A DNA stretch of 27,854 nt from Gaiellaceae bacterium (lineage in GTDB: Bacteria > Actinomycetota > Thermoleophilia > Gaiellales > Gaiellaceae), in NCBI GenBank assembly GCA_044871215.1, contig JBIOZO010000077.1, positions 1 to 27,854 on the forward strand, in the 5' to 3' direction. The notes under the pieces are model-generated. The model did not search any database. It was not told where the DNA came from and was given only the letters and a program-made list of their open reading frames with translations. The stretch's first letter is position 1; each line of letters starts with the position of its first letter. Of the stretch, positions 8,415-13,306 are shown one piece after another. Both the position numbers and the translations under genes were made by a program.

Positions 8415-9845
8415 GTGCGCGCAAAGATCTTCGCGGAGGAGAACCGCAGGTGGTGGACGTTGGGGGCGCTCTGCTTCGCCCTCTTCATGATCATGTTGGA
8501 CAACACCGTTGTGAACGTCGCACTGCCGGCGATCAGGGCGGACCTCGGAATCAGCGTGTCCGAGCTCGAGTGGACGGTCGCGGCCTACGCGCTGACCTTC
8601 GCGTCGCTCCTGCTCACGGGCGGGAAACTCGGCGACCTGCTGGGCCGGCGCCTGATCTTCACGATCGGCCTTGCGGTCTTCACCCTCTCCTCGCTCGCCT
8701 GCGGCCTTTCCTCGAGCGCGCCCGAATTGATCGGCGCCCGCGCGGTGCAGGGGATCGGCGCAGCACTGATGATGCCCGCGACGCTGTCGATCATCTCGGC
8801 AACGTTCCACGCGCGCGAGCGCGGGATGGCGATCGGGATCTGGGCGGGCGTCTCAGCCATGGCGCTCGCGATCGGCCCACTGCTCGGCGGTGTGATCACC
8901 GAGCACATCTCCTGGAACTGGATCTTCTACGTCAACGTCCCGATCGGGGTCGTCGCCGTGCTCGCCGCGATCTTCGTCGTGCCCGAGTCGCGAGACACCT
9001 CGCACGAGCAGCGCCTCGACTTACCCGGCCTGCTCACGTCGGGGGTCGGCCTTTTCGCGCTCGTGTACGCCCTGATCGAGGCGAACACATACGGGTGGAC
9101 CTCGGCGCGCATCCTCGGCCTGTTCGTGGTCGCAGCCGTCGCGCTGACGTCGTTCGTCCTGCTCGAGATGCACCAGCGTCTGCCGCTGCTCGACCTCTCG
9201 CTTTTCCGGAACGGCACGTTCGCCGGAGCGAACCTCGTTGCGATCCTCGTCACGCTCGCGATGTTCGGGATCTTCGTCTTCTTCCCGATCTACATGCAGA
9301 CCTTCCGCGGCTGGTCGCCGATCCAGGCGGGCGCGGCGCTGCTGCCGTGGACGCTGATGGTCGTCGTCTTCGCACCGATCGCGGGCAAGCTCTCCGATCG
9401 CGTCGGGTCGCGCTGGTTGATGGCCGGCGGGATGACCGTGGTCGCCGTCTGCTGCCTGCTGCTCTCGACGGTGACGCTGCAGTCGAGCTTCTGGAACATG
9501 CTCCCGGCGTTCATCCTCGGCGGACTCGGGATGTCGTTCGTGATGACGCCGATGTCGGCCGCCGCCATGGGCGCAGCGCCGGTCGACAAGGCGGGTGTGG
9601 CTTCGGGTGTGCTGAACACGTTCCGCCAGGTCGGGGTCGCGCTCGGGATCGGGATCATGGGCGCGATCATCGCCAACCGCGCCGCGAGCCACGGCGGCCC
9701 GGCGCCGGAGGCGTTCGTCTACGGCCTCACCTTCGGGATGAAGGTCAGTGCGGGGATCTGCTTCGCCGCGGCGATCGCCGCGGCCACGCTCGTGCGCCGC
9801 TACCGGCATGCCGAGGCGAGCACGCCGGCAGAGGCGGCCGCGTGA
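8415..9845 (+). CDS. MFS drug:H+ antiporter, DHA2 (EmrB/QacA) family, 476 aa
   Basis: LDNTVVNVALP (motif D1), GGKLGDLLGRR (motif A) and 'GPLLGG' (motif C); about 14 TM; SD AGGAGG before the GTG at 8415. Confidence 0.95.
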   Translation: MRAKIFAEENRRWWTLGALCFALFMIMLDNTVVNVALPAIRADLGISVSELEWTVAAYALTFASLLLTGGKLGDLLGRRLIFTIGLAVFTLSSLACGLSSSAPELIGARAVQGIGAALMMPATLSIISATFHARERGMAIGIWAGVSAMALAIGPLLGGVITEHISWNWIFYVNVPIGVVAVLAAIFVVPESRDTSHEQRLDLPGLLTSGVGLFALVYALIEANTYGWTSARILGLFVVAAVALTSFVLLEMHQRLPLLDLSLFRNGTFAGANLVAILVTLAMFGIFVFFPIYMQTFRGWSPIQAGAALLPWTLMVVVFAPIAGKLSDRVGSRWLMAGGMTVVAVCCLLLSTVTLQSSFWNMLPAFILGGLGMSFVMTPMSAAAMGAAPVDKAGVASGVLNTFRQVGVALGIGIMGAIIANRAASHGGPAPEAFVYGLTFGMKVSAGICFAAAIAAATLVRRYRHAEASTPAEAAA

Positions 9846-10435
9846 GCTCGAGGCTCTCGGGGCCGGAGCGGCGGCAGGCGGTCGTCGAGACGGCCTGCCG
9901 CGTCTTCGCCAAGAGCAGCTACCGCGGCTCGACGACCGCGCAGATCGCACGCGAGACCGGAGTTACCGAGCCGGTGCTCTACCGCCACTTCGCGTCGAAG
10001 CGCGAGCTCTATCTCGCGTGCCTCGACGCGGTATGGGAACGCGTTCGGGCGCTCTGGGAGAACGCCCTCGAGCAGGAGCCCGACCCGGCGAACTGGCTGC
10101 GCACGATCAGCAAGGCCTACCTCGAGGAACGCGGCGCGGGAAGGATCGTGCTGGTCGACCTCTGGATCCAGGCGCTCACCGAGGCTGCCGACGACCCGGA
10201 GATTCGGCGCGCGCTGCGCGCACAGCTGCGCGAGGTGCACAAGTTCGTCGCGGACGTCATCCGCCGAGCCCAGGACGCAGGAGGGCTGGTCGCCGAGCGC
10301 GACCCCGACGCCGAGGCGTGGATCTTCATCTCCCTCGGGCTGCTGTCGACGATCGATCGCCGGCTAGGCAACCTCGTCGGGGACGAGTTCGACGGCATCG
10401 TCGCGTCACGCCGCGCCTGGATGACCGGGGCGTAG
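9842..10435 (+). CDS. TetR/AcrR-family transcriptional regulator, 197 aa
   Basis: HTH 'STTAQIARETGVTEPVLYRHFASKRELY'; GTGA overlap with the MFS stop. Confidence 0.95.
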   Translation: MSSRLSGPERRQAVVETACRVFAKSSYRGSTTAQIARETGVTEPVLYRHFASKRELYLACLDAVWERVRALWENALEQEPDPANWLRTISKAYLEERGAGRIVLVDLWIQALTEAADDPEIRRALRAQLREVHKFVADVIRRAQDAGGLVAERDPDAEAWIFISLGLLSTIDRRLGNLVGDEFDGIVASRRAWMTGA

Positions 10436-10446
10436 CGCTCCGGACC

Positions 10447-10490
10447 AAAAAGAAAGCCCCCGGCTGCGGCTCCGGGGGCTTTTGGTTTTT
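10447..10490. terminator. Bidirectional intrinsic terminator
   Basis: AAAGCCCCCGG-ctgcggct-CCGGGGGCTTT (11 bp, perfect) with a T-rich tail on + (TGGTTTTT) and on - (CTTTTT). Confidence 0.85.
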
Positions 10491-10620
10491 GCGCTTTGGT
10501 GAGAGGCGACGGCCCGAAGGCCTTGGCTCTGCGGCCCAGCCACTACCTTCGGGCCTTCCGTCGCCGTCTCTGGCGCGCCCCTTGCATCCCGTAAGCCTGG
10601 CGTCCGGCTGGGTGCAAGGT
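10447..10620 (-). ncRNA. Putative ~175-nt structured small RNA, family unassigned
   Basis: Bounded by a near-consensus promoter and a terminator. It folds by eye into two long bulged hairpins plus the terminator and has no convincing ORF or downstream gene. Confidence 0.65.
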
Positions 10621-10626
10621 GGACGC

Positions 10627-10655
10627 AATATAGACCCGACCGGTGGGGGCGTCAA
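10627..10655 (-). promoter_or_regulatory. Strong housekeeping-sigma promoter driving the putative sRNA
   Basis: Minus strand: TTGACG (10655-10650), 17-nt spacer, TATATT (10632-10627); predicted +1 A at 10620. Confidence 0.8.
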
Positions 10656-10788
10656 GTAGCTCGGTCAAGTGATTTTTGTTTCCCCCAGTTCACCCCATTT
10701 GCGGCTCTGGTATGCCCTTTTTGGGGGATATTCCGAAACGGACACTTGCGGATCAGTCAAGTATCCGTTTCACTTCGCCTGCAGGCCT

Positions 10789-12141
10789 ATGTCCTCCCGC
10801 ATGTCCGCAACCCGCCAGCTTCGCCCCGCCGCCCAGCCCGGTAGCGCCCGCCTCGGCGAGCGCGTCCGCCAGCTGCGCGTGGCCGCGGGGCTGACGCAGA
10901 CCGATCTCGCCGGCGACCGTTTCTCCAAGGAGTACGTCAGCCAGATCGAGCGCGGGAAGACCAGGCCCACGCGCGAGACGATCGAGTGGCTCGCCGGGAA
11001 GCTCGGCGTCGATGCCGGCTTCCTCGAGCGCGGTGTCTCCGCCGACGAGCGCAGCCGCGTCGAGACGATGCTGGCCCGCGCGGAGGCGCTGACGAACGCC
11101 GAACGCTTCGACGAGTCGATCGAGGAGTACGACAACCTGCAGACGGCCTTGCTCGCCACGGGCGCGGTCGATCTCGAGGTTCGCGCCCTCACCGGTCGGG
11201 CGTGGGCGCTCGTGGAGCGCGGCGACGTCCGCGACGGGCTCGCCGTGCTCGAGGAGGCCCGCCAGCTCGCCGAGCGGCCGGAGTTCTCGGACATCGACCG
11301 GGCCGACCTGCTCTACCGGATGGGCTACTGCCGCTACAAGCTTTCGAGCAACGCCACCGCGCTCGGCCTCTTCAACGAGGCACTGACGCTGGCCGAGGGG
11401 TCCGGGCTCCCGTGTGACGCTCTGCGGGCCGAGATCTTCCACTCCCGGGCGCTCTGCTACCGCAAGCAGCGCGACTTCGAGGCCGCGCGCGAGGACGTCG
11501 AGCGCGCGCTCGAGCTCGCCGAGGCGCTGGACGACCGGCGCACGATGGCGGACGTGTTCCTGAACGCGTCACTCGTCGCCGAGCGGATGGGCCAGTGGGT
11601 GCTCGCGCGCAGCTACGCCGAGCGGGCCCGCGGCCACTACCAGGAGCTGAACGACGGCCGGAAGTTCGCCGGCGTGCTGAACAACCTCGGCGGCCTGAAC
11701 CTCCTGCTCGGCCGCCCCGAGCAGGCGATCGAGCACCTGAAGGCGTCGTTCGGCGCCGCGCTCGAGGTCGACAGCGTCGAGACGGCCGCGCAGGCCGAAG
11801 GCTCGCTCGCCACCGTGCACCTGCACCTCGGTGACTGGGAGCAGGCGGAGCAGCTGGCGCGACACGCGCTGTCGCTCCTGACCGACCGCGAGGATTATCT
11901 GCACGAGATCGCGCCGACCCAGCTGGTGCTGGGGCGCGCGCTCATGGAGCAGAACAAGCTCGAGGAAGCCGAGCAGTGGCTCCGCACCTCCGACTCGAGC
12001 GCCGAGCGACTGGAGTCGATCGGCCATCGAGCGGCGGCGTGGATCGCGCTCGGGGATCTCGAGACTCGCAGGAACAATCAACCCGAGGCCGCCGTGCTCT
12101 ATCGGCGTGCCGCGGAGGCGCTACAGGATGTCCGGTTCTAA
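10789..12141 (+). CDS. XRE-HTH + tetratricopeptide-repeat transcriptional regulator (NprR/PlcR-like architecture); start at 10789 or 10801
   Basis: N-terminal HTH_3 'LGERVRQLRVAAGLTQTDLA...SKEYVSQIERGKTRP...LAGKLGV' followed by roughly 8-9 helical TPR-like repeats (e.g. 'LLYRMGYCRYKL', 'VLNNLGGLNLLLG'). Confidence 0.9.
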   Translation: MSSRMSATRQLRPAAQPGSARLGERVRQLRVAAGLTQTDLAGDRFSKEYVSQIERGKTRPTRETIEWLAGKLGVDAGFLERGVSADERSRVETMLARAEALTNAERFDESIEEYDNLQTALLATGAVDLEVRALTGRAWALVERGDVRDGLAVLEEARQLAERPEFSDIDRADLLYRMGYCRYKLSSNATALGLFNEALTLAEGSGLPCDALRAEIFHSRALCYRKQRDFEAAREDVERALELAEALDDRRTMADVFLNASLVAERMGQWVLARSYAERARGHYQELNDGRKFAGVLNNLGGLNLLLGRPEQAIEHLKASFGAALEVDSVETAAQAEGSLATVHLHLGDWEQAEQLARHALSLLTDREDYLHEIAPTQLVLGRALMEQNKLEEAEQWLRTSDSSAERLESIGHRAAAWIALGDLETRRNNQPEAAVLYRRAAEALQDVRF

Positions 12142-12160
12142 GGAGTCGAAGGAGGTGAAT

Positions 12161-12283
12161 ATGTACAAGGCGCGCATGATCACTTTCGTCGTTTCGCTGT
12201 CCGTGCTGCTGGCATCGTCCGCGGGCTTCTCGCGTGGGCTGTGCTTCTTCCTTGGGAAGGGCAGCAGCTGGTTCGAGCTCTAG
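12161..12283 (+). CDS. Unannotated 40-aa secreted-type peptide MYKARMITFVVSLSVLLASSAGFSRGLCFFLGKGSSWFEL
   Basis: Perfect SD AAGGAGGTGA at 12149-12158; basic n-region, hydrophobic h-region and small-residue SSA site; 19 nt after the regulator stop; below the ORF-track length cutoff. Confidence 0.8.
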   Translation: MYKARMITFVVSLSVLLASSAGFSRGLCFFLGKGSSWFEL

Positions 12284-12294
12284 TCCGACCAGGC

Positions 12295-12327
12295 GCGTTC
12301 GGAGCGGGTCCTGAAGGCTCCGAACGC
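12295..12327 (+). terminator. Hairpin closing the regulator-peptide transcript
   Basis: GCGTTCGGAGC-11 nt-GCTCCGAACGC, a perfect 11-bp stem 11 nt after the peptide stop; no U-tract. Confidence 0.6.
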
Positions 12328-12418
12328 AGCCGGCACGCGTCGAGCCGCGCTCCTGCTCAGCGGTTCCTCGCAGATTTGCCGGCCGTCCGACCCGTATGAC
12401 CCTGGCTAGACTCGGCCC

Positions 12419-13306
12419 GTGGGTCGCGTCGTCGCCGTCCTCTTCGCGGTAGCGGCTCTCAGCGCCGGTTGCGGCGGTTCTACGACCGCTCACGCCCTCA
12501 CTCTCGACTCGATCCTCCAGCGGCCCGGCCCTGACATCGGCGTCACCGCCGGTGCCGGCGACTTCGCGCCGGGCGCCGTGCGCTTCCCGTTCCTCGTGAT
12601 CGCGAGCAACGCGAAGCCGGTCGAGCGTCCGGCTGCCGCGGTCTGGGTCGCGACGAGCCGGGACGGCAAGCCGTTCCAGCACGTGAGCGCGAAGCTCGAG
12701 CCGATCGGCGTGCCCGGCCGCTCGGAAGCTGCCTTCGGCGGGGTGCGGCGGATCTACGTCGCGCACCTGCGGATACCGCGGCCCGGCCGCTACTGGCTGG
12801 TCGCCGAGCCGCAGGGTGCCGAGCTGCAGGCGCTCGGCGCGATCGACGTGGCGTCGCGGTCGCGCAGCACCGCCGTCGGCGAACTGGCTCCGCGCTCGGA
12901 CACTCCGACGCTCGCGACGGCGCCGGCTGCCCAGATCACCACGAACACCCCGCCGGACCTCCCGCTGCTGCGCTACTCGGTGGCGGAGTCGCTGGCCGCC
13001 CACGTTCCCTTCGTGGTGACGTTCGCGACGCCGAAGTTCTGCACCAGCCGCACGTGCGGGCCGGTCGTGGACGTCGTCGAGGCCGTGCGGAAGCAGTTCG
13101 CCGCGCGCGGGATCCGCTTCATTCACGTCGAGGTGTTCGAGCACAACGACCCGACCCGCGGCTACAACCGCTGGATGCGCCAGTGGGGCCTGCGCAGCGA
13201 GCCCTGGGTGTTCCTCGTCGGCCGTGACGGCCGGGTAAAGGCGAAGTTCGAAGGATCGGTCTCCCAGCGCGAGCTCGCTGGCGCCGTGCGCGCTCACCTG
13301 GGCTAA
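12419..13306 (+). CDS. Putative lipoprotein with a C-terminal thioredoxin-like domain; leaderless
   Basis: Lipobox-like LSAG|C after a hydrophobic stretch; FCTSRTCGP (Cx4C), FIHVE and EPWVFLVGRDG resembling the cis-Pro strand. TAGACT (12407-12412) lies 6 nt before the GTG. Confidence 0.75.
   Translation: MGRVVAVLFAVAALSAGCGGSTTAHALTLDSILQRPGPDIGVTAGAGDFAPGAVRFPFLVIASNAKPVERPAAAVWVATSRDGKPFQHVSAKLEPIGVPGRSEAAFGGVRRIYVAHLRIPRPGRYWLVAEPQGAELQALGAIDVASRSRSTAVGELAPRSDTPTLATAPAAQITTNTPPDLPLLRYSVAESLAAHVPFVVTFATPKFCTSRTCGPVVDVVEAVRKQFAARGIRFIHVEVFEHNDPTRGYNRWMRQWGLRSEPWVFLVGRDGRVKAKFEGSVSQRELAGAVRAHLG

Follow-up and report, generated by a model that had tools for sequence, protein, structure and literature searches.

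A conserved regulator-peptide gene pair of the Gaiellales with a probable RRNPP-like mode of action

We analysed a 27,854-nt stretch of DNA from a Gaiellaceae bacterium (Actinomycetota; assembly GCA_044871215.1, contig JBIOZO010000077.1, positions 1 to 27,854, hereafter the window), in which the gene for a regulator with helix-turn-helix (HTH) and tetratricopeptide repeat (TPR) domains is followed by a gene for a 40-residue peptide. Established here are the gene pair itself, its conservation, purifying selection on the peptide gene, a C-terminal tail motif that some precursors repeat in tandem, and co-variation of this tail with the regulator. From sequence comparison, structural modelling and analogy, we consider it probable that the tail peptide is the ligand of the regulator and acts as an exported signal; likewise, the two genes would probably form a cassette that works like the RRNPP systems of Bacillota (NprR-NprX and PlcR-PapR, with arbitrium- and Rap-Phr-like touches).

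The regulator and the peptide gene

The pair and its parts, all on the plus strand, with open reading frame abbreviated as ORF, are:

10789-12141: regulator gene, 450 aa, from ATG at 10789 to the stop codon at 12139-12141 (ORF)
10849-11019: XRE-type HTH, residues 21-77 (Pfam)
11041-12123: about nine TPR-like helix pairs, residues 85-445 (AlphaFold2 model)
12149-12158: Shine-Dalgarno (SD) sequence AAGGAGGTGA of the peptide gene, its sole perfect copy in the window
12161-12283: peptide gene, 40 codons and stop, ATG at 12161 (conserved position and frame, substitution rates)
12161-12223: basic n-region, hydrophobic h-region and SSA↓G site, residues 1-21 (sequence)
12260-12280: predicted active tail GSSWFEL, residues 34-40 (co-fold contacts, family conservation)
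12292-12331: stem-loop, a probable terminator without T tail (minimum-free-energy fold, relatives, RNA contigs)

The longest frame of the regulator starts at a GTG at 10669 and would encode 490 aa; we took the 450-aa form because homologues align from about residue 1-20 of it. Pfam families HTH_31 (E 1.3e-11) and HTH_3 (E 2.8e-8) matched at residues 21-77, and TPR_12, TPR_2 and TPR_1 over residues ~137-446, in agreement with the original prediction of an HTH and multi-TPR protein of ~450 aa. HTH residues are almost invariant in the alignment of the regulator family. The protein has no signal or transmembrane segment, a feature of cytoplasmic receptors, and its AlphaFold2 model (pLDDT 89.4, pTM 0.74, 24 helices) consists of a five-helix HTH region and then an unbroken superhelix of helix pairs over residues 85-445. 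The asparagines to which the original prediction had drawn attention in the TPR helices, N259 (VFLNASL) and N298/N299 (VLNNLGG), are present; among homologues N299 is invariant and N298 at least 90% conserved.

By its substitution pattern the small ORF is a real protein-coding gene under purifying selection. The pooled ratio of nonsynonymous to synonymous substitution rates (dN/dS) in its frame was 0.31 for the window's own clade, 0.29 for its genus and 0.28 for a second family, as against 0.95-2.8 in the other two frames of the same alignments, and third codon positions were the most variable. Its ATG follows the regulator stop by 19 nt, and a GGAGG-type SD is kept before it in relatives. The product begins with basic MYKAR, continues with a 13-residue hydrophobic stretch, the SSA↓G site and a variable middle, and ends in GSSWFEL. 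The hairpin behind the gene has an 11-bp core and 14 pairs in the minimum-free-energy fold (-30.1 kcal/mol, no T tail), an energy that by itself is not significant (z -1.85); a stem-loop of other sequence occupies the same place in most relatives of the genus, and locus L004 has a compensatory T>C / A>G change within the hairpin. The original prediction had read this layout correctly, from the strong SD, the 40-aa ORF and its signal-peptide-like N-terminus to the 11-bp hairpin. Its description of the ORF as unannotated was right only in part, because public gene callers list the ORF and its relatives as 'hypothetical protein', sometimes with an upstream start.

Conservation of the pair

The regulator was present in 72 of 75 and 61 of 65 genomes of two Gaiellales families, and a survey across the order found it in none of 60 genomes from three other families. 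All 24 sampled genomes of the window's genus and all four of one genus in the second family carried it; a 400-genome sample of the phylum yielded it only in Gaiellales and in one genome from another family of the same class. The window's own genome is a metagenome-assembled genome (MAG), 66% complete. A cultured carrier was sought, and the best 80 of roughly 450 loci in a species-representative collection were all from MAGs.

In a first sample, an SD-led small ORF lay 13-41 nt past the regulator stop at all 29 loci with downstream sequence. It was also found in other genera of the window's family (some loci being resolved manually) and in six genera of the second family, where regulator identity is only 42-45%. 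For 78 further independent loci from the species-representative collection we used an automatic test that demanded an SD, a start within 75 nt of the stop, a net-positive head and a hydrophobic window; an SD-led signal-like ORF was thus detected after the regulator in 70 of the 78, and in none of the 78 reverse complements. The comparison of homologues that had been suggested along with the original prediction therefore came out in its favor, the small ORF being kept in two families down to 42% regulator identity. Judged by these sequences, the arrangement of regulator and small ORF is far beyond chance.

Searches with tail patterns returned to the same place. The back-translated pattern G-F-H-[Q/E]-W-stop had 34 sites in 41 second-family genomes, one per genome, with one match in the backwards control; the 33 sites that could be checked by regulator coordinates all adjoin the regulator, 130-160 nt past its stop. 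The pattern W-F-D-G-H-stop had 34 sites in 41 genomes of the window's genus (control, 0), and 27 of these are the regulator-adjacent ORF. No downstream small ORF was seen at the paralogue of the regulator in the window's own genome (L031, 27% identity).

Anatomy of the peptide family

All of 67 distinct peptides had a net-positive n-region, 62 had 12 or more uncharged residues in a row, and 59 had a small -1/-3 site after that run. AXA-type sites are unambiguous in the window (SSA↓G), L036 (AQA↓K), L059 (SYA↓G) and L076 (AIA↓A), and also in L074. The middle part of the peptides varies in length and sequence, and it is the last 5-7 residues that are conserved. In the window's family the tail motif is [W/F]-x-[D/E]-G (SWFDGH, SWFDGL, SWWDGP, TW[S/A]DGH, GFFDGH, MWDGPL); tails of the window's own clade are SWFEL, SWVEW and SWYEG, and the second family has RGFH[Q/E]W throughout.

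Some precursors resemble polyproteins, with a canonical signal peptide and then 3-7 tail units separated by short spacers (L078-L080, L119, L122, L123, L164). Behind one signal peptide there are 3-5 SxFDGG units (SMFDGG among them) in L036, L119, L122 and L123, 3-4 GMHDGH units in L059 and L164, and 4-7 GFSDGG or DGFSDGN units in L078-L080, which lie next to paralogous regulators (51-52% identity). Such tandem repeats suggest processing of the precursor, and their position behind a single signal peptide is hard to square with a membrane anchor or an arrest peptide. Tandem pheromone copies in one propeptide are a described feature of Bacillota RRNPPA systems (PMC11343458).

Histidine-rich spacers are found in second-family peptides (HVHHH, HHGHH) and in a few from the window's genus (GHGHDH); from their composition, these might point to metal binding.

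The seven other WFDGH-stop sites are SD-led mini-ORFs of 10-11 codons, M-[L/I]-R-x-x-S-W-F-D-G-H, which lack a hydrophobic head and lie at unrelated chromosomal loci of genus relatives (L085, positions 2079-2111; L086, L087, L089, L091, L093 and L101). Each is followed by a hairpin, the loop of which holds GTTGCGGC in four cases, and for five of the seven a tRNA gene lies 150-950 nt upstream. Around the five mini-ORF loci scanned against Pfam, the flanking ~1.5 kb contained no integrase or phage gene. Going by their sequence, these mini-ORFs may encode the signal in leaderless form, and they may be remnants of mobile elements. At L053, from another genus of the family, the regulator-adjacent ORF itself has only 15 codons (MKARQILHRGWTDGH), start and tail being retained and the hydrophobic segment deleted. 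For the S-W-F-E-L-stop tail of the window's own clade, the sole extra match (G194) was rejected as a second-site copy and taken as chance, because it sits within a long unrelated frame and has neither a start codon nor an SD.

Predicted binding of the tail and co-variation with the groove

TPR residues 80-450 of the regulator, with an alignment of our own supplied, were co-folded with peptide residues 31-40 in three runs. The score was 0.79 in all three, and at best 0.02 for the controls (two unrelated 10-mers and an unrelated receptor); in the calibration of the tool 58 of 80 solved complexes came up to this mark, as did 2 of 110 mismatched pairs, counts that apply only roughly to a 10-residue peptide because the calibration contained no chains below 30 residues and no user-supplied alignments. 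Confident contacts were made by peptide residues 34-40 (GSSWFEL) only, with 21 receptor residues that include N259, N298 and N299. This co-folding, again a check put forward with the original prediction, thus places GSSWFEL in the TPR groove. The accompanying suggestion that the C-terminal aromatic end may be the active part fits both the conservation of the last residues and these sole confident, though predicted, contacts.

The 21 interface positions served as a prediction, which we put to the test with 72 receptor-peptide pairs. In the 15 receptors of the GFH[Q/E]W class (mean 72% identity in the rest of the TPR domain), 1 of the 21 interface sites was variable, compared with 193 of 345 elsewhere (P = 1.8e-6); for the SWFDGH class the numbers were 5 of 21 and 165 of 345 (P = 0.026). 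The window's clade and its sister class carry tails that are unlike in the last three residues, and their receptor consensus sequences disagree at 13 of the 21 interface sites and at 116 of 345 elsewhere (P = 0.0095). Receptor pairs with the same tail hexamer had 0.1-1% interface differences, even at 30-35% background divergence, and pairs with different tails had 9-28%. The relatedness of the sequences means that such co-variation is not proof, whereas the contrast between sites is meaningful since all sites share one tree. The co-varying C-terminus envisaged by the original prediction has its counterpart here, a conserved tail that varies together with the predicted groove residues. Together, the alignments and the model support the view that the groove interface behaves as a specificity determinant, remaining fixed with the tail and shifting when the tail shifts.

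Transcripts, candidate operators and neighboring genes

Four rhizosphere metatranscriptome assemblies contain contigs that cover the 3' end of the regulator gene and the whole small ORF, at 12000-12308 (two runs) and at 11929-12421. The 12000-12308 contig ends inside the hairpin, and strain differences in the RNA contigs alter peptide residues 28-30 but not the tail. Depth in the two runs was 26-28 for this contig, which takes in the peptide gene and the final 140 nt of the regulator gene, vs. 0-10 over the rest of the regulator gene. The peptide gene may have a second promoter inside the regulator gene, as phr genes are known to have inside their receptor genes.

Upstream of the regulator we recognized three further features:

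10651-10670, no strand assigned: two direct GTCAAGT boxes with 13-bp period, candidate operator (unique in genome, conserved)
10744-10762, no strand assigned: imperfect palindrome ACTTG-N9-CAAGT just 5' of the regulator start, candidate auto-operator (unique in genome, genus alignment)
10450-10620, minus strand: divergent small RNA of ~170 nt (promoter, terminator, RNA contigs)

The stretch with the GTCAAGT boxes is the best-conserved part of the upstream region across genera, and ahead of the regulator such boxes are also present in the second family and with the one orthologue from a third family. Boxes and palindrome were found nowhere else in the 66%-complete genome, where no wider regulon was seen. 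By promoter scan the small RNA has a minus-strand promoter TTGACG-17-TATATT at 10655-10627, the -35 of which is overlapped by GTCAAGT box 1, and a terminator at 10482-10453. It is kept next to the regulator at all primary loci of the family and no other feature of the RNA data comes near it in abundance (contigs 10474-10612, depth 140-1000, adapters at both ends). Rfam gave no match for 10300-12500 and nothing near gathering score. We infer that the regulator controls itself and the small RNA through the GTCAAGT boxes, which would make the small RNA a possible regulatory target.

Across genera of the family the gene order MFS, TetR, small RNA, regulator, peptide, lipoprotein, ABC1 kinase is kept. 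In the window, genes for an MFS transporter and a TetR-family regulator precede the pair (8460-10435), and the conserved downstream gene (12403-13306) encodes 295 aa with a lipoprotein-type signal up to AGC, a C-x4-C motif and no Pfam match. This lipoprotein gene is apparently leaderless, a TAGACT -10 lying ~7 nt ahead of its GTG start, and the TAGACT/TACACT-N-GTG layout recurs ahead of it in other genera. In the second family (L025-L028, L062-L073) its place is taken at several loci by a DnaJ-like gene (...KRDYYEVLGV), as read in L026, L067-L069, L072 and L073.

Proposed mode of action and alternative explanations

In the explanation that we favor, the regulator and peptide genes would be co-transcribed, given that they are 19 nt apart with the terminator after the pair. 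The 40-aa product would be exported through its Sec-type signal peptide with the SSA↓G site, its pro-part trimmed extracellularly to a short peptide ending in ...GSSWFEL, and this peptide would re-enter the cell, probably by an importer of the Opp/Dpp-type ABC kind. The original prediction was right that the window holds no Opp importer; three SBP_bac_5 (OppA/DppA-type) genes lie elsewhere in the 66%-complete genome, none linked to the cassette. Co-folding and co-variation would then place the peptide in the concave TPR groove, held by the near-invariant N298/N299 and by the class-specific positions 222, 255, 258, 259, 292, 294-296, 332, 335, 338, 342 and 373. Binding would alter the action of the N-terminal XRE HTH at the upstream GTCAAGT boxes, which overlap both the promoter of the strongly expressed, conserved small RNA and the promoter region of the regulator itself.

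It is quite possible, though we stop short of calling it probable, that this is true peptide quorum sensing and the first RRNPP-type receptor-propeptide family outside Bacillota: a core module shared by two families of Gaiellales that are uncultured and abundant in soil, with a [W/F]-x-[D/E]-G-type tail as signal, private 'languages', a small-RNA output and, in some genomes, leaderless second copies acting without export. If so, the RRNPP-type design would exist in a second phylum, by descent or convergence, and there would be a first handle on the social behavior of very abundant, almost uncultured soil bacteria, as well as new orthogonal peptide/receptor pairs with readable specificity residues. 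The question is directly testable with synthetic 6-7-mer peptides and recombinant regulator.

Several observations weigh against the favored explanation. The regulator orthologue in the one genome from another family of the same class (L082; E 1e-85) has no small ORF within ~100 nt downstream. In the main genus clade the h-region is followed by AFYL[E/Q]G, which is not a canonical AXA site, and the leaderless tails (the seven mini-ORFs and L053) suggest that the tail may also act without export. The co-folding, with its 10-residue partner, lies outside the calibration of the tool and its controls were limited to unrelated 10-mers and an unrelated receptor, while the co-variation tests rest on related sequences. 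Contigs from RNA libraries, which can contain DNA, do not prove that the two genes share one transcript. By fold, LGN and Pins outscore every RRNPP protein, and the Pfam and NCBIfam matches of the regulator include no RRNPP-specific family. Finally, all genomes involved are MAGs. As a separate observation on L082, its regulator is followed by an AT-rich spacer and a MarR-like gene, and GTCAAG boxes lie upstream.

The most serious rival explanation, unlikely as we judge it, is that the peptide binds the TPR groove only inside the cell that makes it, as a partner or antagonist and not an intercellular signal, with the head serving membrane targeting or control of turnover. The seven genus genomes with headless SD-led mini-ORFs ending in SWFDGH and the 15-codon ORF of L053, which has no h-region, are what one would then look for; in one family the cassette is moreover near-universal, mostly single-copy and fixed in synteny, unlike the mobile, fast-diversifying pherotype loci of Bacillota, and co-fold and co-variation fit equally well. 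Yet the positive n-region (67 of 67) and long uncharged run (62 of 67) would be costly to retain if export were irrelevant, and by the positive-inside rule the tail would face outwards. The 3-7 tandem tails behind a canonical signal peptide resemble secreted polyproteins, and even leaderless tails need not stay inside, as leaderless yet exported pheromones exist in Bacillota (PMC10518010).

There is also a minor chance that the small ORF encodes an exported or membrane-anchored micro-protein, merely co-transcribed or regulated with a TPR protein that senses something else. Since many members have no canonical AXA site, the head could be a single N-in transmembrane anchor, and the His-rich spacers (HVHHH, GHGHDH) could mean extracellular metal binding; TPR folds bind many kinds of partner, and the top fold matches of the regulator include LGN, Pins, OGT and MalT as well. 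What this would leave unexplained is why the predicted groove residues hold constant inside each tail class and differ from one class to the next, why the cognate peptide co-folds at 0.79 and unrelated 10-mers at 0.02, and why only the last 5-7 residues of the exported part are conserved when the rest varies.

A signal-like head, a conserved C-terminal motif at the stop and a hairpin directly after it (as the second-site mini-ORFs also have) would suit a cis-acting arrest or monitoring leader of the SecM, MifM, VemP or ApcA kind, controlling the downstream gene via the hairpin. We regard this as very improbable. The conserved neighbor is the upstream regulator, and the downstream gene differs by family (lipoprotein vs. 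DnaJ-like); the lipoprotein gene, with an apparent TAGACT -10 of its own and a leaderless GTG, would have no SD to mask. Tandem motif repeats and co-variation with a TPR groove are not expected of a leader, and the ten-codon forms are too short for the exit tunnel. We give hardly any weight to a ribosomally synthesized and post-translationally modified peptide (RiPP) with the HTH-TPR protein as its pathway regulator, which would draw on the short precursor, the conserved core at its C-terminus and a weak NCBIfam match to a cyclophane-RiPP TPR protein family (E 2e-6, far below cut-off), since genes for a modifying enzyme, a protease or a dedicated exporter are absent from the surroundings of the pair in both families (the neighbors being MFS, TetR, lipoprotein and ABC1 kinase, or DnaJ) and the head has the make-up of a Sec-type signal, unlike that of a RiPP leader.

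Comparison with RRNPP systems

Foldseek against the PDB placed designed TPRs and LGN/Pins first, with PlcR (3u3w, rank 35), phage Rap and NprR at ranks 35-50. In an exhaustive search with VIA-align, LGN (Z 30.7) and Pins (30.3) led, followed by RapI (27.7, 353 residues aligned), phage phi105 Rap (25.8), RapH (24.4), NprR (4gpk; 24.1, 340 of 343 residues aligned), pLS20 Rap (23.2), MalT (22.7), PlcR (2qfc; 20.0) and AimR (19.8, AimR range 18-20). The fold search advised with the original prediction thus brought up RapI, phage Rap, RapH and NprR at Z 24-28 and near-full coverage. In these models RRNPP proteins are the best bacterial fold matches, with full-domain coverage, yet the fold is non-discriminating: because designed and eukaryotic TPR proteins rank first, fold alone cannot settle RRNPP membership. 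Sequence comparison gave no evidence of RRNPP membership, as Pfam, NCBIfam and a PDB profile search gave generic TPR/HTH matches only; in the profile search PlcR and ComR matched through the HTH alone, and RapJ had E 1.6e-3. Given the LGN/Pins scores and the lack of an RRNPP sequence match, the term RRNPP-like, as used in the original prediction, holds as a description of the probable working mode and not as a statement of family membership.

RRNPP(A) systems are described for Bacillota only (PMC10075063, PMC12700828), and actinobacterial signals as enzyme-made small molecules (PMC10075063). Gaiellaceae, in Actinomycetota, lie outside that range, and our literature search found no account of RRNPP or peptide pheromones for Actinobacteria or Gaiella. 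The signature used by RRNPP_detector is a receptor of 250-500 aa with TPR hidden Markov model (HMM) hits and an adjacent, Sec-exported propeptide of 10-70 aa (10.1101/2021.08.18.456871; PMC10075063); it was applied only to Firmicutes and viruses (10.1101/2021.08.18.456871). The Gaiellales cassette has the size, TPR HMM matches and adjacency of this signature, and with its TPR receptor, N-terminal XRE HTH (present in all RRNPP members but Rap) and adjacent small propeptide gene it shares three features of RRNPP systems. RRNPP propeptides are exported by Sec or PptAB and processed, and an oligopeptide permease takes up the mature peptide, which binds in the TPR groove with its backbone anchored by conserved Asn; for the Gaiellales peptides these steps are putative or predicted.

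In NprR-NprX, as here, the receptor is ~420-450 aa long, begins with an XRE HTH and has about nine TPRs; its propeptide gene of ~40 codons lies immediately downstream in the same orientation and encodes a Sec-type head, which the head of the Gaiellales peptide resembles. NprR holds a short peptide in its TPR groove, which is predicted here. The two differ in that no sequence relationship is detectable beyond generic TPR and HTH. The active part of NprX is an internal heptapeptide, whereas the predicted active part here is the extreme C-terminus; the Gaiellales cassette is in addition a core chromosomal module of two families, with a small RNA as candidate target.

In PlcR-PapR, too, an HTH-TPR receptor is followed by a propeptide with an aromatic and acidic tail (here SWFEL, WFDGH), and receptor and tail diversify jointly into classes. 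PlcR is shorter (~285 aa, five TPRs), its match covering only residues 20-303 of the regulator. The PapR signal is the C-terminal heptapeptide ADLPFEF (PMC6568020).

Rap proteins are the best bacterial fold matches to the regulator. They have a three-helix N-terminal domain instead of an HTH and act on proteins, not DNA. Phr-type propeptides can hold tandem pheromone copies (PMC11343458), which is paralleled here by L036, L059, L078-L080, L119, L122, L123 and L164.

The arbitrium system AimR-AimP-AimX of SPbeta-like phages likewise combines an HTH-TPR receptor, an adjacent propeptide with a C-terminal hexapeptide signal and a small non-coding RNA as output; the Gaiellales locus differs in being chromosomal and core, and its small RNA is upstream and divergent, with control by the regulator that we infer. 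RopB-SIP and other leaderless peptides of Firmicutes (PMC10518010) are short and signal-less and are read by a TPR-type cytoplasmic receptor, which invites comparison with the SWFDGH mini-ORFs and L053. Unlike in RopB-SIP, the putative leaderless copies here coexist with a signal-bearing, receptor-adjacent copy and sit at unrelated loci.

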